Below, one piece after another: positions 12,918-42,447 of a stretch of 64,000 nt of DNA. How positions within the stretch are numbered: the first letter of the stretch is position 1; the number at the start of each line of letters is the position of its first letter. The translations under genes and the position numbers were made by a program. The notes under the pieces are model-generated. The model had not been told where the DNA came from and ran no database searches. It saw only the letters and a program-made list of their open reading frames with translations. This DNA is from Escherichia phage FL23: sequence record PP400787; one strand, 5' to 3'.

Positions 12918-13233
12918 TATTCGTCCGGTCGATGAGACCGGTCTTTCAGAAAAAGAACTTTCAATTAAGAAAGAAAAAGATGAAATTGCAAAGCTTCTTG
13001 ACCGTCAAGAAAATGGATTTATTATTGAAAAAATGGTAGAAGAGTTTGGAATGAGTTATCTTGAAGCTACAACAGCATTCTTAGAAGAAAACTCTATTCC
13101 TGAAACTCAATTTGCTAAATTTATTCCTTCGGGTATAATTGAAAAAATTCAGTCAGAAGCTATTGACGAAAATCTTTTACGTCCTTCTGTTGTTCGTTGT
13201 GAAAAAACTAATACATTAGATTTTCTGCTATGA
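12895..13233 (+). CDS. 33: gp33 late transcription co-activator
   Basis: 112 aa from MTQFSLNDIRP; acidic C-terminal region. Confidence 0.8.
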   Translation: MTQFSLNDIRPVDETGLSEKELSIKKEKDEIAKLLDRQENGFIIEKMVEEFGMSYLEATTAFLEENSIPETQFAKFIPSGIIEKIQSEAIDENLLRPSVVRCEKTNTLDFLL

Positions 13234-13883
13234 TTAAACTCCGCATGCCTGCTGGTGGTGAAAGATACATTGATGGTAAATCAGTTTATAAATTATACTT
13301 AATGATAAAACAACATATGAATGGAAAGTATGATGTTATTAAGTATAATTGGTGCATGCGGGTGTCTGATGCCGCTTATCAAAAGCGAAGGGATAAGTAT
13401 TTTTTCCAGAAGTTATCAGAAAAATATAAATTAAAGGAACTTGCTTTAATTTTTATAAGTAATTTGGTTGCTAACCAAGATGCTTGGATTGGTGACATCT
13501 CTGACGCTGATGCACTTGTGTTTTATCGTGAATATATCGGACGCTTAAAGCAAATTAAATTTAAGTTTGAAGAAGATATTCGCAACATTTATTATTTTAG
13601 TAAAAAAGTTGAAGTTTCTGCTTTTAAAGAAATCTTTGAATATAATCCAAAGGTTCAGTCAAGTTATATTTTTAAACTTCTGCAATCGAACATAATTTCG
13701 TTTGAGACGTTTATCTTGCTTGATTCATTTTTAAATATAATTGATAAACATGATGAACAGACTGATAATTTAGTCTGGAATAATTATTCTATAAAGTTAA
13801 AGGCTTATAGAAAAATTTTAAATATTGATTCACAGAAAGCTAAAAATGTTTTCATTGAAACTGTGAAATCTTGCAAGTATTAA
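13230..13883 (+). CDS. 59: gp59 helicase loader
   Basis: 217 aa, MIKLRMPAGGERYIDGKSVYKLY...; upstream of gene 32. Confidence 0.85.
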   Translation: MIKLRMPAGGERYIDGKSVYKLYLMIKQHMNGKYDVIKYNWCMRVSDAAYQKRRDKYFFQKLSEKYKLKELALIFISNLVANQDAWIGDISDADALVFYREYIGRLKQIKFKFEEDIRNIYYFSKKVEVSAFKEIFEYNPKVQSSYIFKLLQSNIISFETFILLDSFLNIIDKHDEQTDNLVWNNYSIKLKAYRKILNIDSQKAKNVFIETVKSCKY

Positions 13884-13884
13884 T

Positions 13885-13908
13885 TGCTTATTATAAATAG
13901 ATTATAAT
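13885..13908 (+). promoter_or_regulatory. gene 32 promoters: MotA-box-like TGCTTAT, late TATAAATA (13893-13900) and TATAAT
   Basis: ttgcttattataaatagattataat. Confidence 0.5.
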
Positions 13909-13912
13909 TATC

Positions 13913-13982
13913 TCACTGACCAGCTATGAGGTCATACATCGTCATAGCACCAACTGTTAATTAAATTAAAAAGGAAATAAAA
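13913..13982 (+). promoter_or_regulatory. gene 32 translational operator: pseudoknot plus AU-rich unstructured gp32-binding leader
   Basis: ctcactgaccagctatgaggtcatacatcgtcatagcac followed by aactgttaattaaattaaaaaggaaataaaa and then the ATG. Confidence 0.75.
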
Positions 13983-14891
13983 ATGTTTAAACGTAAATCT
14001 ACTGCTGAACTCGCTGCACAAATGGCTAAACTAGCTGGAAATAAAGGTGGTTTTTCTTCTGAAGATAAAGGCGAGTGGAAACTGAAACTCGACAATGCGG
14101 GTAACGGTCAAGCAGTAATTCGTTTTCTTCCGTCTAAAAATGATGAACAAGCACCATTCGCAATTCTTGTAAATCATGGTTTCAAGAAAAATGGTAAATG
14201 GTATATTGAAAACTGTTCATCTACCCACGGTGATTACGATTCTTGCCCAGTATGTCAATACATCAGTAAAAATGATCTGTACAACACTGATAATAAAGAG
14301 TACAGCCTTGTTAAACGTAAAACTTCTTACTGGGCTAACATTCTTGTTGTAAAAGACCCGGCTGTTCCAGAAAACGAAGGTAAAGTATTTAAATACCGTT
14401 TCGGTAAGAAAATCTGGGATAAAATCAATGCAATGATTGCGGTTGATGTCGAAATGGGTGAAACTCCGGTTGATGTAACTTGTCCGTGGGAAGGTGCTAA
14501 CTTTGTACTGAAAGTTAAACAAGTTTCTGGTTTTAGTAACTACGATGAATCTAAATTCCTGAATCAATCTGCGATTCCAAACATTGACGATGAATCTTTC
14601 CAGAAAGAACTGTTCGAACAAATGGTTGACCTTTCTGAAATGACTTCTAAAGATAAATTCAAATCGTTTGAAGAACTGAGCACTAAATTCGGTCAAGTTA
14701 TGGGAACTGCTGCTATGGGCGGTGCCGCAGCAACTGCCGCTAAGAAAGCTGATAAAGTTGCTGATGATTTGGATGCATTTAATGTTGATGACTTCAAAAC
14801 AAAAACTGAAGATGATTTTATGAGCTCAAGCTCTGGCAGTTCATCTAGTGCTGATGACACGGACCTGGATGACCTTTTGAATGACCTTTAA
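13983..14891 (+). CDS. 32: gp32 single-stranded DNA-binding protein
   Basis: 302 aa; [37 protein letters not shown]; acidic C-terminus. Confidence 0.95.
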
Positions 14892-14913
14892 CGGATTATA
14901 TTACTAATTAATT

Positions 14914-14938
14914 GGGGACCCTAGAGGTCCCCTTTTTT
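14914..14938 (+). terminator. rho-independent terminator after gene 32
   Basis: ggggacc-ctaga-ggtcccc followed by tttttt. Confidence 0.85.
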
Positions 14939-14964
14939 ATTTTAAAAAATTTTTTCACAAAACA

Positions 14965-14994
14965 GTTTACATACCACAAGGACTGTGGTACTAT
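14965..14994 (+). promoter_or_regulatory. early promoter with spacer stem-loop (GTTTACA-N17-TACTAT)
   Basis: gtttaca taccacaaggactgtgg tactat; ccaca/tgtgg hairpin in spacer. Confidence 0.5.
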
Positions 14995-15037
14995 ACAACT
15001 ATCGGCAATACTGCTGATGATTAAAGAGGAAAACAAT

Positions 15038-15265
15038 ATGGCTAAAGTTGATATTGACATCGTTGATTTTGAATATATTGAAGAAATTATTCGTAATCGT
15101 TATCCTGAACTTAGTATCACAAGCGTACAAGATTCTAAGTTTTGGAGTATTCAAATCGTTATTGAAGGTCCTCTTGAAGACCTCACCCGCTTTATGGCTA
15201 ATGAATATTGTGATGGCATGGATTCTGAAGACGCAGAATTTTACATGGGATTGATTGAACAATAA
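15038..15265 (+). CDS. hypothetical early protein (frd.3-like, 75 aa)
   Basis: ATG 15038 preceded by AAAGAGGA; ORF track start 14912 rejected. Confidence 0.55.
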
Positions 15266-15308
15266 TTATCAAGGGGCTATTAAGCCCCTATCAAAATGAG
15301 GAAACGTA

Positions 15309-15689
15309 ATGTATATTGGCAAAAAGTATGAACTTGTTCCAAGACTTATTGATACATTTATTAATTATAGCCCACGTTCTAATTCATCAATCGTTAAAGC
15401 TATTCGAGATAATGGCGGATGGTTTGAAGTTAAAGAAGTTTCCGTCGCTAATGGATATAAAGCAGTAAAACACATTGAATGCGCAAATGGAAAGCATTTT
15501 TACCTCAAAGATAGACTTTTAGAAATTTGCGAAGATGAATTTCATTGTTTTCGTGAGTATAAAGAACCGACTTCTGAAGAAGATGAAGTCAAAGACAAGG
15601 TTTCTGGCGTAACAAAAATTCACTGCATTGTTGACGAAAACAATGTAGATGAAATCATTGAACTTTTGCAAAAAACTTTCAAAAAGTAG
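15309..15689 (+). CDS. hypothetical early protein (frd.2-like, 126 aa)
   Basis: ATG with GAGGA SD. Confidence 0.55.
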   Translation: MYIGKKYELVPRLIDTFINYSPRSNSSIVKAIRDNGGWFEVKEVSVANGYKAVKHIECANGKHFYLKDRLLEICEDEFHCFREYKEPTSEEDEVKDKVSGVTKIHCIVDENNVDEIIELLQKTFKK

Positions 15690-15724
15690 TTTACAGTAGG
15701 GTAGTAGTGTGATGCTATTACCCT
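15689..15724 (+). promoter_or_regulatory. early promoter -35 GTTTACA with overlapping stem-loop (agggta/taccct)
   Basis: gtttacagtagggtagtagtgtgatgctattaccct. Confidence 0.4.
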
Positions 15725-15748
15725 ATCAAAACTAATGGAGAAAAGAAA

Positions 15749-15817
15749 ATGTTCGCACCTTATATTATGGCAGCAGTTATGTTGGTCTGTTTATATCTTT
15801 TGATTAAAGCTTGCTAA
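15749..15817 (+). CDS. 22-aa hydrophobic peptide ORF (MFAPYIMAAVMLVCLYLLIKAC)
   Basis: GGAG SD 10 nt upstream; single predicted TM helix; below ORF-track cutoff. Confidence 0.3.
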   Translation: MFAPYIMAAVMLVCLYLLIKAC

Positions 15818-15827
15818 GGAGAATAAA

Positions 15828-16070
15828 ATGAGATTACAACGCCAGAGCATCAAAGATTCAGAAGTTAGAGGTAAATGGTATTTTAATATCATCGGTAAAG
15901 ATTCTGAACTTGTTGAAAAAGCTGAACACCTTTTACGCGATATGGGATGGGAAGATGAATGTGATAGATGCCCTCTTTATGAGGATGGAGAAAGCGCAGG
16001 ATTCTGGATTTATCATTCTGACGTTGATCAGTTTAAAGCTGATTGGAAAATTGTGAAAAAGTCTATTTGA
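15828..16070 (+). CDS. hypothetical protein (80 aa)
   Basis: ATG with AGGAGA SD; no recognised domain. Confidence 0.5.
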   Translation: MRLQRQSIKDSEVRGKWYFNIIGKDSELVEKAEHLLRDMGWEDECDRCPLYEDGESAGFWIYHSDVDQFKADWKIVKKSI

Positions 16071-16080
16071 GGAAAATATT

Positions 16081-16413
16081 ATGTCTGACATTCATGTAAC
16101 TGGAATTTCACAAGTAAATATTCGCTGCCAATTTAAAACTGTACCCGGGGTGACTCATATTACTTTATCACACGACCCATATTCTCGTGGAAGACAGTTA
16201 ACTGGTGTAATTAAGTTTTTCGGTGGAATTGGTGGTAATGAATTTACTATAGGCGATGAAGAAATTGTTGGCTGTAAATTAAAAGTTCAGAAAGGCGTGT
16301 TAGAACTTTTTAGTGATGAAGTTTTTGATGAAATCTCACGGGCAGTTAACAAAGGAATGTTAACGTTAATTAAAATGATTAAAGCTAGCGGATATGTTCC
16401 TGATCCTTTTTAA
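16081..16413 (+). CDS. hypothetical protein (110 aa)
   Basis: ATG with GAGGA SD; no recognised domain. Confidence 0.5.
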   Translation: MSDIHVTGISQVNIRCQFKTVPGVTHITLSHDPYSRGRQLTGVIKFFGGIGGNEFTIGDEEIVGCKLKVQKGVLELFSDEVFDEISRAVNKGMLTLIKMIKASGYVPDPF

Positions 16414-16424
16414 TAGGAGATAAT

Positions 16425-17251
<827 letters not shown>

Positions 17252-17271
17252 AATAACGCGTGGCGGAAAAT

Positions 17272-17619
17272 ATGAATTTTAATTATTACCCTATTCTATT
17301 AGAAAAAGACATGAAACAGCCAAAATGGCAAGGTCCTCAGTTTATTAAAGGTGTCTATCAATTAGTAGTTCCTAAAGACAAGATTTATAGCAGTTGTTTC
17401 ACTGAATCCGCTTGCAGTATTTTCGGTAATAGTTCTCCGTATTGGAATTTTGACATAAAGCTGGATAGAAATATCGATATTTGGTTGAAAGCTATGGATA
17501 TTGGTAATATCACGTTTGATGAGAATAATTATCATATTATTGGTCGCTTTTCCAAACGCGGTAAAGAATTATATTTCACGCCTGAAATTGAGAGAAAATT
17601 TGATGCTAAACCGTATTGA
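17272..17619 (+). CDS. hypothetical protein (115 aa) in an insertion between frd and td
   Basis: ATG 17272 (ORF track GTG 17260); no recognised domain. Confidence 0.5.
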   Translation: MNFNYYPILLEKDMKQPKWQGPQFIKGVYQLVVPKDKIYSSCFTESACSIFGNSSPYWNFDIKLDRNIDIWLKAMDIGNITFDENNYHIIGRFSKRGKELYFTPEIERKFDAKPY

Positions 17620-17663
17620 TTATTAGCTTCATAAAATGTATTATAATTTATATAAGGTACTAA

Positions 17664-18212
17664 ATGAAACAATACCAAGATTTAATTAAAGACATTTTTG
17701 AAAATGGTTATGAAACCGATGACCGAACAGGCACAGGAACAATTGCTTTGTTCGGTACTAAATTGCGTTGGGATTTAACTAAAGGTTTTCCTGCAGTAAC
17801 AACTAAGAAGCTCGCCTGGAAAGCTTGCATTGCTGAGCTGCTTTGGTTTTTATCGGGAAGCACAAATGTCAATGATTTGCGATTAATTCAACATGATTCG
17901 TTAATCCAAGGCAAAACAGTTTGGGATGAAAATTACGAAAATCAAGCAAAAGATTTAGGATACCATAGCGGTGAACTTGGTCCAATTTATGGAAAACAGT
18001 GGCGTGATTTTGGTGGTGTAGACCAAATTATAGAAGTTATTGATCGTATTAAAAAATTGCCAAATGATAGGCGTCAAATTGTTTCAGCATGGAATCCAGC
18101 TGAACTCAAGCAGATGGCATTACCGCCTTGTCATATGTTCTATCAGTTTAATGTGCGTAATGGATACCTTGACCTTCAGTGGTATCAACGATCAGTAGAT
18201 GTTTTCTTGGGT
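17664..18212 (+). CDS. td: thymidylate synthase, exon 1 (183 codons)
   Basis: MKQYQDLIKDIFENGYETDDRTGTGT...; exon ends ...gttttcttgggt, intron starts taattgaggcctgag. Confidence 0.9.
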
Positions 18213-19228
18213 TAATTGAGGCCTGAGTATAAGGTGACTTATACTTGTAATCTATCTAAACGGGGAACCTCTCTAGTAGACAATCCCGTGCTAAATTGTA
18301 GGACTGCCCTTTAATAAATACTTCTATATTTAAAGAGGTATTTATGAAAAGCGGAATTTATCAGATTAAAAATACTTTAAACAATAAAGTATATGTAGGA
18401 AGTGCTAAAGATTTTGAAAAGAGATGGAAGAGGCATTTTAAAGATTTAGAAAAAGGATGCCATTCTTCTATAAAGCTTCAGAGGTCTTTTAACAAACATG
18501 GTAATGTGTTTGAATGTTCTATTTTGGAAGAAATTCCATATGAGAAAGATTTGATTATTGAACGAGAAAATTTTTGGATTAAAGAGCTTAATTCTAAAAT
18601 TAATGGATACAATATTGCTGATGCAACGTTTGGTGATACATGTTCTACGCATCCATTAAAAGAAGAAATTATTAAGAAACGTTCTGAAACTGTTAAAGCT
18701 AAGATGCTTAAACTTGGACCTGATGGTCGGAAAGCTCTTTACAGTAAACCCGGAAGTAAAAACGGGCGTTGGAATCCAGAAACCCATAAGTTTTGTAAGT
18801 GCGGTGTTCGCATACAAACTTCTGCTTATACTTGTAGTAAATGCAGAAATCGTTCAGGTGAAAATAATTCATTCTTTAATCATAAGCATTCAGACATAAC
18901 TAAATCTAAAATATCAGAAAAGATGAAAGGTAAAAAGCCTAGTAATATTAAAAAGATTTCATGTGATGGGGTTATTTTTGATTGTGCAGCAGATGCAGCT
19001 AGACATTTTAAAATTTCGTCTGGATTAGTTACTTATCGTGTAAAATCTGATAAATGGAATTGGTTCTACATAAATGCCTAACGACTATCCCTTTGGGGAG
19101 TAGGGTCAAGTGACTCGAAACGATAGACAACTTGCTTTAACAAGTTGGAGATATAGTCTGATCTGCATGGTGACATGCAGCTGGATATAATTCCGGGGTA
19201 AGATTAACGACCTTATCTGAACATAATG
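18213..19228 (+). mobile_element. group I self-splicing intron in td (1016 nt) carrying I-TevI
   Basis: P1/IGS gcctgag pairs with exon end cttgggt; core motifs gtagggtcaagtgactcgaaa and atatagtctgatctgcat; ends ...ctgaacataatg. Confidence 0.9.
18344..19081 (+). CDS. I-TevI: I-TevI GIY-YIG homing endonuclease (intron ORF)
   Basis: 245 aa; GIYQIKNTLNNKVYVGSAKDFEKRWKRH; C-terminal Zn finger and DNA-binding domain. Confidence 0.9.
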   Translation: MKSGIYQIKNTLNNKVYVGSAKDFEKRWKRHFKDLEKGCHSSIKLQRSFNKHGNVFECSILEEIPYEKDLIIERENFWIKELNSKINGYNIADATFGDTCSTHPLKEEIIKKRSETVKAKMLKLGPDGRKALYSKPGSKNGRWNPETHKFCKCGVRIQTSAYTCSKCRNRSGENNSFFNHKHSDITKSKISEKMKGKKPSNIKKISCDGVIFDCAADAARHFKISSGLVTYRVKSDKWNWFYINA

Positions 19229-19540
19229 CTTCCATTTAATATTGCATCATATGCTGCGTTAGTTCATATTGTAGCTAAGATGTGTAATCTTATCCCAGGA
19301 GATTTGATATTTTCTGGTGGTAATACTCATATCTATATGAATCACGTAGAACAATGTAAAGAAATTTTACGTCGTGAGCCTAAAGAACTGTGCGAACTTA
19401 AAATTGATTGGCCTATAGAGTTTGAAAATTGTGACACCGAAACACAGCTTTACTGGTTAACTGAATACATGAAACCGAAAGATTTTATCCTTGAAAATTA
19501 TGAATCGCATCCGGCAATTAAAGGGAAAATGGCAATATGA
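19229..19540 (+). CDS. td: thymidylate synthase, exon 2 (103 codons; spliced product 286 aa)
   Basis: In-frame continuation [21 protein letters not shown]...; frame verified across junction. Confidence 0.9.
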
Positions 19541-19800
19541 TTTTACGATTTAAAGATACTTCTGGCGTTGTTCTTTTTACACTTCCTAACCCAAGCGAGT
19601 TAGAAGTTCCAGGACCAGAACAGCCTATTATCATTTATGGTAAAAAATATTATACTCATAAAATGACTCGTGAGTATTTTGATAATAAAATTTCCACAGT
19701 TAAAACTTCTTCAGATTGTTACTATGATATTACTGTATTAACGGAAAAACAATATGACGAATTATCAACGCGCGGGCCGTCTATGCCAGGTAGTGAATAA
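19537..19800 (+). CDS. hypothetical protein (87 aa) between td and nrdA
   Basis: ATGA overlap with td stop. Confidence 0.5.
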
Positions 19801-20080
19801 ATATAAATCCGACTTTGATGTTAATATTCACCGTGGTACATTTTGGGGAAATTACGTCGGTAAAGATGCTGGCAGCCGGGAGGCTGCCATTGAATTATTC
19901 AAAAAAGATTTTATACGTCGAATTAAATCCGGAGAAATAACTAAAGCACATTTAGAGCCTTTACGTGGAATGAGGCTAGGATGCACATGTAAACCAAAGC
20001 CGTGTCATGGTGATATAATAGCTCATATAGTTAACCGATTGTTTAAAGACGATTTTCAAGTTGAGGACTTATGCAATTAA
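19754..20080 (+). CDS. DUF4326-like protein (C-terminal [12 protein letters not shown] signature)
   Basis: Motif recognition: WGNY... and L.C.C.P..CHGD; overlaps upstream ORF by 47 nt. Confidence 0.5.
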
Positions 20081-28236: not shown

Positions 28237-28290
28237 GTTTACAAGTCCCTCGTGTTGTGTTATAGTAGTCTTACTGACATAACATGAGGA
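28237..28290 (+). repeat. 54-bp early-promoter/leader cassette, copy A (identical to 42394-42447)
   Basis: gtttacaagtccctcgtgttgtgttatagtagtcttactgacataacatgagga; -35 GTTTACA, 17-nt spacer, -10 TATAGT, SD GAGGA. Confidence 0.8.
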
Positions 28291-39941: not shown

Positions 39942-42032
39942 ATGATGGAACTAATTACAGAATTATTTGACGAAGATACTACTCTTCCGATTACAAACTT
40001 AAATCCAAAGAAGAAAATACCACAAATTTTTTCAGTTCATGTTGATGATGCAATTGAACAACCAGGCTTTCGTTTATGTACCTATACATCTGGAGGTGAT
40101 ACTAATCGCGATTTAAAGATGGGCGATAAAATGATGCATATTGTTCCTTTTACATTAACTGCTAAAGGTTCAATTGCCAAATTAAAAGGTCTTGGTCCAA
40201 GCCCAATTAATTATATCAATTCAGTTTTTACTGTTGCAATGCAAACAATGCGTCAGTATAAAATTGATGCCTGCATGCTTCGTATTCTTAAGTCTAAAAC
40301 CGCTGGTCAAGCTCGACAAATTCAAGTTATTGCTGATAGACTTATCCGTAGTCGTTCAGGGGGCAGATACGTCCTTCTTAAGGAACTCTGGGATTATGAT
40401 AAAAAGTACGCATATATTCTTATACATCGCAAAAATGTATCACTGGAAGACATTCCGGGAGTTCCGGAAATTAGTACCGAGCTCTTTACTAAAGTTGAAT
40501 CGAAGGTCGGTGATGTTTATATCAATAAAGATACTGGAGCTCAAGTAACTAAAAATGAGGCAATTGCAGCATCTATTGCGCAAGAAAATGATAAACGTTC
40601 TGATCAAGCTGTAATCGTTAAAGTTAAAATTTCCCGTAGAGCAATTGCACAAAGCCAGTCATTGGAATCTTCTAGATTTGAAAGTGAATTATTCCAGAAG
40701 TATGAATCTACCGCAGCTAATTTCAATAAACCTGCTACCGCTCCTTTAATTCCCGAAGCAGAAGAAATGAAGCTTGGAATTAATTCATTAGCTTCTAAAA
40801 CTAAGGCAGCAAAAATTATTGCCGAAGGAACTGCGAATGAACTTCACTATGACTATAAATTCTTTTCAAAAAGTGAGGTTGATGAAGTTTCTGAAAAAAT
40901 TAAAGATGTAATTCTTAATGCGATTAAAAATGAACCAACTACTTCAATAAAATGTTTAGAGAAATACGCAGCAGCTGTTAATCAACTCTTTGAAGAATAT
41001 AAAGATAATTGGCTTGATAAACATAATAAAACTCGTAAAGGGCAGACAGATGAAGTCTGGGGAGAAATAACTAAAAATGCCTGGAATGCAGCAAAAACTA
41101 AATTCCTCAAACGAATGATTTATAGTTTTTCTGGAATTGGTGCAGGCCCAATGATTGATATTACTATTGCCCGTGATGGTTCTAAATATACTCCATCGCA
41201 AAAGCGCGGTATTAGAGAGTATTGTGGTTCAGGATATACAGACATTAATAATCTTCTTTTAGGTCGTTACAATCCAGAACGATATGATGTAATGAGTGAA
41301 AAAGAAATTGAATCTGCTATAAATAATTTAGATTCAGCTTTTGAAAATGGTGACCGCATACCGGAAGGCATTACAGTTTATCGTGCTCAAAGTATGACTG
41401 CTCCTATATACGAAGCACTAGTTAAAAATAAAGTGTTCTATTTCAGAAATTTTGTATCTACTTCTTTAACTCCTATCATTTTTGGACGTTTTGGAATTAC
41501 ACATGCTGGTATTGGTCTTTTAGAACCAGAAGCTCGTAATGAATTAACAGTTGATAAAAATGAAGAAGGAATAACTATTAATCCAAACGAAATAAGAGCG
41601 TATAAAGAAAATCCTGAATACGTTAAAGTTCAAATAGGATGGGCAATTGATGGAGCTCATAAAGTTAATGTTGTATATCCAGGAAGTCTCGGAATAGCAA
41701 CAGAAGCTGAAGTTATTCTACCGCGCGGACTGATGGTCAAAGTTAATAAAATAACTGATGCTTCTAATAATGACGGAACAACATCTAACAATACAAAACT
41801 CATTCAAGCTGAAGTTATGACCACAGAAGAACTCACCGAATCGGTAATCTATGACGGAGACCATTTAATGGAAACTGGTGAATTGGTTACAATGACAGGT
41901 GATATAGAAGATAGAGTTGACTTTGCATCATTTGTTTCATCAAATGTTAAACAGAAAGTAGAATCATCTCTTGGAATTATTGCGTCTTGCATAGATATTA
42001 CAAACATGCCTTACAAGTTCGTTCAAGGATAA
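39942..42032 (+). CDS. alt: Alt, virion-packaged ADP-ribosyltransferase
   Basis: 696 aa; N-terminal MELITELFD capsid-targeting-like region; ART R-S-E motifs (YRAQ, FVSTSL); late promoter. Confidence 0.8.
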   Translation: MMELITELFDEDTTLPITNLNPKKKIPQIFSVHVDDAIEQPGFRLCTYTSGGDTNRDLKMGDKMMHIVPFTLTAKGSIAKLKGLGPSPINYINSVFTVAMQTMRQYKIDACMLRILKSKTAGQARQIQVIADRLIRSRSGGRYVLLKELWDYDKKYAYILIHRKNVSLEDIPGVPEISTELFTKVESKVGDVYINKDTGAQVTKNEAIAASIAQENDKRSDQAVIVKVKISRRAIAQSQSLESSRFESELFQKYESTAANFNKPATAPLIPEAEEMKLGINSLASKTKAAKIIAEGTANELHYDYKFFSKSEVDEVSEKIKDVILNAIKNEPTTSIKCLEKYAAAVNQLFEEYKDNWLDKHNKTRKGQTDEVWGEITKNAWNAAKTKFLKRMIYSFSGIGAGPMIDITIARDGSKYTPSQKRGIREYCGSGYTDINNLLLGRYNPERYDVMSEKEIESAINNLDSAFENGDRIPEGITVYRAQSMTAPIYEALVKNKVFYFRNFVSTSLTPIIFGRFGITHAGIGLLEPEARNELTVDKNEEGITINPNEIRAYKENPEYVKVQIGWAIDGAHKVNVVYPGSLGIATEAEVILPRGLMVKVNKITDASNNDGTTSNNTKLIQAEVMTTEELTESVIYDGDHLMETGELVTMTGDIEDRVDFASFVSSNVKQKVESSLGIIASCIDITNMPYKFVQG

Positions 42033-42035
42033 ATC

Positions 42036-42422
42036 ATGGAACTTATTACAGAATTATTTGACGGCGCTTCGGCGCCGGTTGTTAACTTAAATCCTAAGCA
42101 TAAAATACCACAAATTTTTGCTATCCAAGCCGGCGAAGAAAGCGTGCTTCCTGGATTTAGATTTTGTACATATACCTCTGGTGGTGATACAAATAAAAAC
42201 GTTAAGCCAGGCGATAAAATGATGCATATCGTAATGATAGGCGTCAACGAGAAATTATCGCTGGTTAAGCTTAGAAACTTGGGTGGAAATCCAATTGGCG
42301 TCATTAATGCGGTTTTTGATACTGCTCTTCAAACAATGAAGCAGTATAAAATTGACGCATGCCTATTCCGCGTACTAAAAAGTTCAAAATGTAGTTTACA
42401 AGTCCCTCGTGTTGTGTTATAG
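42036..42422 (+). CDS. truncated Alt N-terminal paralog (128 aa)
   Basis: MELITELFDG...LPGFRFCTYTSGGDTN...MMHIV...KQYKIDAC parallels Alt residues 1-125; ORF ends inside repeat copy B. Confidence 0.55.
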   Translation: MELITELFDGASAPVVNLNPKHKIPQIFAIQAGEESVLPGFRFCTYTSGGDTNKNVKPGDKMMHIVMIGVNEKLSLVKLRNLGGNPIGVINAVFDTALQTMKQYKIDACLFRVLKSSKCSLQVPRVVL

Positions 42423-42447
42423 TAGTCTTACTGACATAACATGAGGA
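42394..42447 (+). repeat. 54-bp early-promoter/leader cassette, copy B (identical to 28237-28290)
   Basis: Exact 54/54 match found by eye; flanks differ. Confidence 0.8.

Follow-up and report, generated by a model that had tools for sequence, protein, structure and literature searches.

Between gene 32 and frd of Escherichia phage FL44: a conserved promoter/stem-loop element, an unannotated micro-ORF and two genes probably lost from T4

The window, a stretch of DNA of 64,000 nucleotides, was 100% identical to Escherichia phage FL44 (Tequatrovirus), and the region considered here is, with high confidence in the explanation as a whole, an ordinary early gene 32-to-frd stretch of a T4-like phage. 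Six ORFs, each with a Shine-Dalgarno (SD) site, were located between gene 32 (13983-14891) and frd (16670-17251), exactly where the preliminary description had placed them. The features are as follows:

14965..14994, plus strand: early-promoter-like element 5' of frd.3 (GTTTACA-N17-TACTAT, TG-extended -10, internal 7-bp stem)
15038..15265, plus strand: frd.3 orthologue, 75 aa (PF05798, E 8e-40; 100% identical to T4 Frd.3)
15272..15289, plus strand: G+C-rich stem-loop between frd.3 and frd.2 (-12.9 kcal/mol, z = -2.6)
15309..15689, plus strand: frd.2 orthologue, 126 aa (PF03197, E 4.5e-33)
15689..15727, plus strand: PeSL-type composite element (-35, 13-bp stem, -10 hexamer)
15749..15817, plus strand: p22, 22-codon ORF with its own SD, intact in 200 records
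15828..16070, plus strand: frd.1 orthologue, 80 aa (DUF5417)
16081..16413, plus strand: DUF7247 gene, 110 aa (PF23905)
16425..16670, plus strand: acidic ORF, 81 aa (phrog_3183, no Pfam family)
16670..17251, plus strand: frd (dihydrofolate reductase), downstream end of the cluster

The terminator of gene 32 (14914-14932) is followed by the promoter-like element at 14965, whose equivalent bears a promoter annotation in phage SA21RB. The frd.3-frd.2 stem-loop, which the SA21RB annotation lists as a terminator, is preceded by the promoter-like sequence TTTACA-N18-AATTAT (15240-15269), and its tail, CCCTATCAAAA, matches the tail of the PeSL-type element at 15689-15727. The T4 frd.2 product is an early protein with an LSm-like fold, encoded by a fitness gene (PMC12152347, PMC11879866). 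From p22 onwards the small ORFs p22, frd.1, DUF7247 and the 81-aa gene form a tight string, each with its own SD, which runs directly into frd. An Rfam scan of positions 13000-20000 detected the td group I intron alone.

The GTTTACA motif with a stem-loop that had been noticed downstream of frd.2 was confirmed in the sequence. Its -35 motif (15689-15695), whose first G is shared with the frd.2 stop codon TAG (15687-15689), is preceded by the A+T-rich sequence CAAAAAACTTTCAAAAAGTA and followed by a 13-bp stem (15696-15708 / 15714-15726) with a 5-nt loop and by the -10 hexamer TGCTAT (15713-15718); the 3' end of the region consists of GGAG at 15737-15740 and then ATG at 15749, in keeping with the PeSL layout. 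The folding energy of the stem-loop was -21.1 kcal/mol (z = -5.75), a stability equalled by none of the shuffled sequences (0/200). By itself the GTTTACA heptamer showed no enrichment across the window (14 occurrences against 10.7 expected), and the composite element was conserved in 491 phage records and constant across 13 relatives except for three variable bases. Copies of it were present at two to three places per genome in many records, including one located 5' of an AAA-ATPase gene in L008. SA21RB has both a promoter and a terminator annotation at this position. The stem-loop (15696-15726) has no U-tract and the terminator scan made no intrinsic-terminator call there; the supplementary text of the T4 dRNA-seq study contained no match for this site. 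Judged by its sequence and layout, the element belongs with the PeSL-type promoter/stem-loop cassettes known from T4-type hyperplastic regions (PMC2839356, PMC4122927). Promoter firing and attenuation of read-through were shown experimentally for the PeSLs of RB49 and phi1 (PMC2839356, PMC4122927); by analogy, in the relatives of FL44 the element would fire as an early promoter and its stem-loop would attenuate read-through from frd.3/frd.2.

The -10 hexamer of FL44 departs from this pattern. T4 and the 12 other sampled relatives carry TACTAT, fitting the consensus TTTACW-N17-TAYWAT, whereas the FL44 sequence, TTTACA-N17-TGCTAT, matches in the -35 and the spacing and has G rather than A at the second -10 base (15714), an A to G change found in FL44 only among the 491 records. 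This substitution probably weakens initiation, which makes promoter activity in FL44 doubtful, and the cluster would then rely to a greater extent on read-through that starts at the 14965 promoter. The G could also be a sequencing error in the single deposited genome. Given this difference at the second -10 base, FL44 and the 98.7%-identical Ge15 form a natural test pair for the function of the element.

T4 (NC_000866.4) annotates frd.3, frd.2 and frd.1 only between gene 32 and frd, as the preliminary description had stated, and its gene content here is not identical to that of FL44, which has more ORFs. The surplus does not start right after the promoter, where the preliminary description had put it, for the promoter, the 22-aa ORF and the 80-aa ORF are all in T4 and the additional genes lie further downstream. 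The 80-aa ORF, previously counted as extra, contains a conserved CxxCP-YEDG motif. It matched PF17438 (DUF5417) with 114.2 bits (cut-off 23.9; E 3e-33) and shared 96% identity with T4 Frd.1, which occupies the corresponding place, showing at the level of sequence that it is frd.1 and not an additional gene. The ORF at 16425, taken before for the frd.1-like gene, had no Pfam match, PF17438 included; a blastp comparison with five DUF5417 proteins was empty, and the ORF was assigned to phrog_3183. Its 81-aa product has a pI of 4.05, its stop codon overlaps the start of frd, and it is absent from T4. The gene hardly varied, with 424 records showing at least 95% identity; a homologue was found directly 5' of DHFR in a distant contig (33% identity, E 1.5e-7), and in RB51 the gene is replaced.

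The 110-aa ORF matched PF23905 (DUF7247) over residues 1-109 with 148.3 bits (cut-off 27), so the earlier statement that neither extra protein has a familiar motif did not hold for this ORF. Residues R15-C16-Q17, P22-G23, G92, L96 and M99 were invariant, and the RCQ...PG motif was common to relatives at 30-60% identity. A structure prediction based on close homologues only reached a pLDDT of 37, which rose to 82.8 when eight remote relatives from an HMM search of 1.8 billion proteins were added; the predicted fold has a four-stranded sheet and three helices. Two long matches of the DUF7247 profile (P0033, P0034) were discarded as low-complexity or repeat artefacts. The remote-homology search that had been suggested assigned families (DUF7247, phrog_3183); the DUF7247 model had no informative fold match. 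PDB sequence searches with frd.1, DUF7247 and the 81-aa protein gave nothing significant, NCBIfam and PADLOC gave sub-threshold noise only, and literature searches found nothing on DUF5417, on DUF7247 or on the p22 peptide sequence. The searches counted 477 phage records with DUF7247 and 469 with the 81-aa gene, T2, T6, RB3 and RB32 among them; DUF7247 was missing from T2, N2, G3G7 and T4, which has a 16-codon stub only. Two divergent DUF7247 allele groups (65-70% identity) exist within Tequatrovirus, and the family also occurs in unrelated phages, namely Phapecoctavirus and one contig with GATase/amidoligase genes. Hundreds of records already list the products of these two genes as hypothetical proteins, and DUF7247 is a curated Pfam family.

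In the blastn alignment of the window with T4, positions 16093-16649 (557 bp) stood opposite 29 bp, and the PeSL-type element and p22 were present in T4 almost base for base. The synteny comparison thus bore out a surplus over T4, but a different one from the block first proposed: the alignment showed it to consist solely of DUF7247 and the 81-aa gene. Of the DUF7247 5' end, 58 nt survive in T4 as the 16-codon stub, and the ribosome-binding site and start codon are left as well. Aligned with the 5' part of DUF7247 from FL44 and RB51, the T4 spacer gave a score that none of the shuffles reached (0/2000). The corresponding vestige of the 81-aa 3' end had a score matched by 745/2000 shuffles and was not significant alone; because this vestige is too short, the 3' limit of the deletion rests on synteny. 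The order frd.2 ... DUF5417, DUF7247, ... DHFR was found in the outgroups Citrobacter phage Merlin, Klebsiella phage JD18 and three metagenomic T4-like contigs, so that frd.1, DUF7247 and frd keep their order in three other Tevenvirinae lineages (Moonvirus, Jiaodavirus and the metagenomic T4-like contigs). Because of the DUF7247 vestige in T4 and the frd.1-DUF7247 order in the outgroups, the comparison showed the surplus genes to be ancestral and lost by the T4 lineage, which deleted about 0.5 kb (DUF7247 and the 81-aa gene), apparently with a 3' junction at a short ATTnAAA similarity close to where the 81-aa gene ends. T4 is the reduced form at this site, so comparisons templated on T4 will misread ancestral genes as insertions.

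The converse reading, that FL44 acquired a mobile cassette (promoter with 22-, 80- and 110-aa ORFs) between frd.2 and frd.1, is very improbable. It draws on the element at 15689 being a genuine PeSL-type motif, on the same stem-loop sequence occurring at a second locus in some genomes, and on Dhakavirus MN04, in which a PeSL with p22 lies at a different locus, between motB and cef, so that such modules move. In T4, however, the promoter, p22 and the 80-aa ORF (frd.1) occupy the corresponding positions, the surplus genes lie 3' of frd.1 with no promoter between, and both the DUF7247 vestige of T4 and the outgroups, which keep frd.1 followed by DUF7247, speak against an insertion; on the T4 alignment, the vestige and the outgroup synteny it was rejected for FL44. 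The surplus genes have no early promoter of their own, and the -10 of the PeSL-type element is altered in FL44. That the small ORFs at 15749-16670 are gene-finder noise is scarcely credible, as nothing but their small size speaks for it, against strong Pfam and PHROG family matches, homologues of 30-60% identity at the same position in other genera, and SD sites with tight spacing for all of them.

The case of p22 is less clear-cut. The ORF encodes MFAPYIMAAVMLVCLYLLIKAC, 22 residues forming a single hydrophobic helix (GRAVY +2.05) with one charged residue near the C-terminus, and would be a single-pass membrane micro-protein. It was intact in 200 genomes including T4 (146018-146083, minus strand). 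That it is no functional protein gene, but a chance ORF or a mere leader in the 5' UTR of frd.1 conserved through the recent spread of an RNA/DNA module, is a serious possibility, albeit the weaker one. The ORF is very short, and not one of the about 100 records listed gives it a CDS annotation; its nucleotide identity was at least 99% in 127/200 records and, identity being so high, few substitutions are informative; its stop codon abuts the frd.1 SD, as fits a purely coupling role; and many relatives manage without it, among them RB51, JK38, N2 and T2. On the other hand, p22 has its own correctly spaced SD (GGAG, 15737-15740), and in the Tequatrovirus variant represented by SA21RB and TOPO13 all of the p22 substitutions (4/4) were synonymous third-position changes, with a chance probability of about 0.002. 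The MN04 copy differs by 13 nucleotide changes, giving four synonymous and five conservative codon changes, yet it preserves length, start, stop and SD, with hydrophobic-for-hydrophobic replacements only and identical termini, while both alternative frames in this comparison hold stops. Apart from MN04, tblastn and degenerate-pattern scans uncovered no further p22 diversity. The cluster would encode dispensable early accessory proteins acting on host components, and DUF7247 and/or the 81-aa protein might be counter-defence or host-range factors that inhibit a host protein by binding, a rather unlikely suggestion which would account for their retention in most wild Tequatroviruses, for their gain and loss from strain to strain and for the fact that T4 can dispense with them when grown on laboratory hosts. 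It is favoured by the early-gene position of both genes, by their patchy presence with several clean, apparently independent losses (DUF7247 gone in T2, N2, G3G7 and T4; the 81-aa gene replaced in RB51), by the two DUF7247 allele groups within one genus, by the presence of the family in unrelated phages and by the small size and acidity of the 81-aa protein. Against it, there is no homology to any characterised inhibitor and no informative fold match, PADLOC and NCBIfam gave only noise below threshold, and the near invariance of the 81-aa gene is not an arms-race pattern.

We give about even chances to the combined reading in which p22 is truly an early gene, shared by T4 and about 200 relatives, encoding a membrane micro-protein that is mobile with its PeSL as a self-contained unit, and in which, as a distinct point, frd.1 and DUF7247 may be translated together as a two-protein unit broken in T4. 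The frd.1/DUF7247 junction is frequently a TAATG stop/start overlap in the outgroups, and the two would be co-translated neighbours; a search for a DUF5417-DUF7247 fusion (Rosetta-stone test) found none. The conserved 22-codon ORF, unannotated in every record listed, is the only mildly new item at the locus, and represents a cheap candidate for a new T4 gene in the growing class of phage membrane micro-proteins.

Mapping of 14 loci of relatives by tblastn revealed at least seven architectures, which marks the stretch between gene 32 and frd as a hot-spot of gene turnover. RB51 and JK38 have an inserted 86-aa ORF immediately 5' of the PeSL-type element, the p22 indel lies directly 3' of the element, in CT01 the element is deleted in a gene fusion, and in other cases single ORFs were gained or lost precisely between repeated RBS/start sequences. 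The earlier picture of a cassette at a hyperplastic site thus stands as regards the PeSL-type element and the gene turnover, but not as regards an insertion, the surplus being ancestral. As posed, the original observation matters little, as it concerns a gene-content polymorphism of a type already known, in a region whose plasticity is known too.

The locus was compared with known systems. The T4 genes frd.1, frd.2 and frd.3 (NC_000866.4 T4p240-242) have the same order and position downstream of gene 32, with identities to FL44 of 100% (Frd.3), 96% (Frd.1) and 66% (Frd.2), and share the promoter/stem-loop and the unannotated p22, whereas FL44 retains DUF7247 and the 81-aa ORF between frd.1 and frd and additionally has a 115-aa ORF between frd and td. 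ORFs of the RB series and other Tequatroviruses (for example RB51ncORF237c, Sf24_gp86, ime09 homologues and T2/T6 "hypothetical proteins") are the same two genes with no substantive difference, FL44 having the common allele of each. In size and hydrophobicity the putative p22 product resembles the small hydrophobic single-helix membrane micro-proteins (<50 aa) of bacteria and phages, but no sequence relationship to any named small protein was found. The element at 15689 resembles the PeSLs (Arbiol et al. 2010, PMC2839356; Comeau et al. 2014, PMC4122927) in its A+T-rich lead-in, TTTACA-N17, -10 and stem-loop over the promoter boxes, in the SD and start codon downstream, in its intergenic position beside ORF-level indels, and in the recurrence of copies elsewhere in the genome and in another genus. 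It differs in that the TGCTAT of FL44 falls outside the TAYWAT consensus of the T4/PST pair and resembles the "degraded" PST PeSLs, in that the indels between FL44 and T4 are not PeSL-bounded here but lie at short ATTnAAA similarity or duplicated RBS/start motifs, and in that it carries as first cargo the conserved micro-ORF p22, which has no counterpart in either of those two descriptions.

Escherichia phage FL44, a Tequatrovirus that came from pig faeces (PP400790.1), was 100% identical over 14900-16700, and its name is used here for the phage of the window; similar sequence was present in 587 phage records. In the FL44 record, five hypothetical CDS separate gene 32, for the single-stranded-DNA-binding protein, from the dihydrofolate reductase gene (frd). 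The six ORFs counted there in the preliminary description were all found at the coordinates listed below, each with a Shine-Dalgarno (SD) sequence, and its figure of three ORFs in T4 was correct, the NC_000866.4 annotation between 32 and frd comprising frd.3, frd.2 and frd.1 only.

Features between gene 32 and frd in the window
13983-14891, gene 32
15038-15265, frd.3
15309-15689, frd.2
15689-15727, promoter-early stem-loop (PeSL)-type element
15749-15817, 22-codon ORF (p22)
15828-16070, frd.1 (80 aa, DUF5417)
16081-16413, DUF7247 gene (110 aa)
16425-16670, 81-aa gene
16670-17251, frd

The ORFs and the element are real, but orthology had been wrongly assigned. The 80-aa ORF at 15828-16070, regarded as an extra gene, is frd.1 itself: it matched Pfam DUF5417 (E 3e-33), the family by which RefSeq names T4 frd.1, and it occupies the position of T4 Frd.1, with 96% identity to it. 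The ORF at 16425-16670, described as frd.1-like, had no Pfam match, fell into a different PHROG (phrog_3183) and showed no similarity to five DUF5417 proteins, while the 110-aa product was a full-length member of Pfam DUF7247 (148 bits).

In a blastn comparison of the window with T4, the aligned blocks were 14801-16092 and 16650-17253, with 16093-16649 (557 bp) corresponding to 29 bp in T4. Because the difference is confined to this interval, the promoter/stem-loop, p22 and frd.1 are common to both phages; in the sequences listed, changes were confined to the triplet following GTTTACA and a single position of the -10 hexamer. An inserted block starting after the promoter, as previously proposed, is thus unsupported, and the surplus of FL44 consists of the DUF7247 gene and the 81-aa ORF.

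The direction of change can be read from the T4 spacer between frd.1 and frd, which has 71 nt and opens with the ribosome-binding site and start codon (ATG) of DUF7247. Over 58 nt, with a 9-nt gap, it aligned to the beginning of the DUF7247 gene in FL44 and in RB51, with a score reached by 0/2000 shuffles. The vestige is a 16-codon ORF, MYVIEIIQVSIRFQLK followed by a stop (1893-1943 of the T4 GT7 locus, L001; between frd.1 and frd in NC_000866.4), as against the intact MSDIHVTGI(S/T)QV(N/R)IRCQ(F/L)K, and it may still be translated. The final 20 nt of the spacer resembled the end of the 81-aa gene, a similarity that is not significant alone (745/2000 shuffles). DUF7247 relatives (37-60% identity) lie directly 3' of a DUF5417 gene and 5' of DHFR in Citrobacter phage Merlin (Moonvirus), Klebsiella phage JD18 (Jiaodavirus) and three metagenomic T4-like contigs, often with a TAATG stop/start overlap at the DUF5417/DUF7247 junction, and an 81-aa protein homologue (33% identity, E 1.5e-7) lies directly 5' of DHFR in one metagenomic T4-like contig. 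By tblastn, DUF7247 was found in 477 phage records (identity at least 60% in 242) and the 81-aa gene in 469, full length in 448, with T2, T6, RB3 and RB32 among them. The T4 vestige, the outgroup gene order and this wide distribution show that the FL44 arrangement is the commoner and older state and T4 a deletion derivative that lost the genes, which makes T4 the reduced outlier at this site.

The architecture was surveyed in 14 retrieved loci.

Architectures of the site
FL44, Ge15, SA21RB: frd.2, PeSL, p22, frd.1, DUF7247, 81-aa gene
G3G7: without DUF7247; 81-aa gene start joined to the DUF7247-type RBS
T2, N2: without p22 and without DUF7247
JK38: additional 86-aa ORF 5' of the PeSL element; without p22
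RB51: like JK38, with a divergent DUF7247 allele; 81-aa gene cut to 30 codons, then an unrelated 113-aa ORF
CT01: deletion joins the 86-aa ORF to frd.1, element removed
T4: without DUF7247 (16-codon stub left) and without the 81-aa gene

The RB51 remnant of the 81-aa gene (L003 2118-2207) was 70% identical over its 30 codons and began with ATA instead of ATG, the 113-aa ORF taking its place. In Shigella phage CT01 (L013 1283-1705), a 140-aa ORF combined residues 1-76 of the RB51-type 86-aa ORF with Frd.1 residues 9-80, the PeSL formerly between them being deleted. The clean indels fell between near-repeats of the RBS/start region, for example CTAATGGAGAA and CTAAGGAGAA around p22, and GAGGAAAATATTATG and TAGGAGATAATATG around DUF7247. 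The suggestion of a hyperplastic-site cassette stands as to the PeSL-type element and the plasticity of the site. None of the events that distinguish FL44 from T4 here had a PeSL on both sides. The small early genes between 32 and frd are an ordinary, previously deposited set within a known plastic region.

A word-indexed search of 5.8 billion proteins returned only close relatives of DUF7247, and eight further genuine ones (30-60% identity) came from a profile search over 1.8 billion representatives. R15, C16, Q17, P22, G23, I27, G92, L96 and M99 were invariant in the joint alignment, from which AlphaFold2 predicted, with good confidence, four strands followed by three helices (pLDDT 82.8, pTM 0.73; pLDDT 37 with the shallow alignment lacking the eight remote relatives). 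In Phapecoctavirus, and in a contig with adjacent GATase, amidoligase and COOH-NH2-ligase genes, DUF7247 is present but DUF5417 is not. These homologues outside T4-like phages (L022 3001-3315, L030 1465-1788) adjoined, in the contig, Peptidase_C26, GATase_6, COOH-NH2 ligase and amidoligase genes and lay, in phAPEC8, 3' of a tRNA methyltransferase gene. A search for proteins fusing DUF5417 to DUF7247 gave none. With a pI of 4.05, the 81-aa protein is acidic; it is nearly invariant (at least 95% identity in 424 records), with no relationship found in Pfam, PDB, NCBIfam or PADLOC. For the neighboring T4 Frd.2, an LSm-like fold has been predicted, and its gene was the sole 'Fit' gene of unknown function in a T4 CRISPRi-ART screen (PMC12152347, PMC11879866).

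Elsewhere in the window, in the interval 13230-13983, a 217-aa ORF, equal in length to the gp59 genes adjoining gp32 in related contigs, directly precedes gene 32, whereas in T4 the homing-endonuclease gene segG adjoins it; segG therefore appears to be absent from FL44. Between frd and td, a 407-bp segment (17254-17660) bears a 9-bp near-repeat on both sides (AAATGAAAT and AAATGAAAC) and a promoter-like TTGATT-N17-TATTAT just 5' of td.

Additional ORF between frd and td
17272-17619, 115-aa ORF, phrog_1928, not in T4

In G3G7 and SA21RB this position holds another ORF, of 68 aa, and the RB51 record already bears the note 'flanked by 9 bp repeat'. In the interval 18344-19180, td carries a group I intron with an I-TevI ORF of 245 aa (Rfam Intron_gpI at 18950-19180, 42.5 bits, gathering score 50, hence under the cut-off). 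An early-promoter-like sequence of 54 nt, GTTTACAAGTCCCTCGTGTTGTGTTATAGTAGTCTTACTGACATAACATGAGGA, is present in two perfect copies 14 kb apart (28237-28290 and 42394-42447), with diverged duplicated segments close to them (39942-40144 and 42033-42232).

The 22-codon ORF would encode a hydrophobic peptide, MFAPYIMAAVMLVCLYLLIKAC (GRAVY +2.05); a GGAG of its own lies 8 nt before the ORF, and its stop codon directly adjoins the frd.1 SD. It was intact in 200 phage records, including T4, T6, RB27, RB32, RB59 and PST, with an identical peptide in 161; none of about 100 records listed annotated it as a CDS, and no match to the peptide was found in the papers searched. All four differences in the SA21RB/TOPO13 variant were synonymous, third-position changes (chance about 0.002, with 21% of possible substitutions synonymous), and ECO07P5 had A8V in addition. 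A 22-codon homologue, MFAPYIMITVIVICLYLLIKAC, was present in Dhakavirus MN04, between motB and cef and away from frd, hence at another locus and in another genus than the Tequatrovirus copy; its 13 nucleotide differences comprised four synonymous and five hydrophobic-for-hydrophobic codon changes, both alternative frames were closed, and it lay between a related stem-loop/promoter and the SD of the next gene, stem-loop and homologue together falling at L017 1440-1590. Informative substitutions are few and several relatives are without p22; the pattern points to a translated micro-gene moving together with its PeSL. This micro-ORF, unannotated even in T4, is one of two points worth keeping.

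The other concerns the -10 hexamer of the element. GTTTACA at 15689 is followed, as first described, by a stem-loop (15696-15726; 13-bp stem, 5-nt loop; -21.1 kcal/mol, z = -5.75, equally stable shuffles 0/200); the heptamer alone was not over-represented in the window (14 copies, 10.7 expected). The stem-loop lacks a U-tract and was not picked up by an intrinsic terminator scan. At the corresponding place, the SA21RB record has annotations for a T4-type early promoter and for a terminator. The core, GGGTAGTAGTGTGATACTATTACCCTATC, was unchanged across 13 relatives, which varied only at the three bases after GTTTACA, and the element occurred in 491 records, many with two or three places per genome. 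A second-locus core in an IMG/VR contig of 167,948 bp (L008 2329-2380) lay 5' of a 322-aa AAA/STAND-like ATPase and 3' of a DUF4031 gene. FL44 alone has TGCTAT as the -10 hexamer (G at 15714), whereas the others have TACTAT; its 47-mer was matched perfectly in 1/491 records, FL44 itself, and Ge15, 98.7% identical to FL44, has A at the equivalent position. For open-complex formation at sigma-70 promoters, no base is more critical than the A in second place of the -10 hexamer, so G15714 would imply either a weakened promoter in FL44 or a sequencing error. We retain it as a candidate for natural variation in the -10 box of a conserved PeSL. For comparison, Comeau et al. described 'half' PeSLs in PST, with -35 and stem intact and the -10 absent (PMC4122927). 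In its A+T-rich lead-in, -35 box and spacing, overlaid stem-loop and ensuing SD and start codon, the FL44 element resembles the PeSL cassettes defined for RB49/phi1 (PMC2839356) and extended to T4/PST with the consensus TTTACW-N17-TAYWAT (PMC4122927), from which its -10 hexamer departs at the second base.
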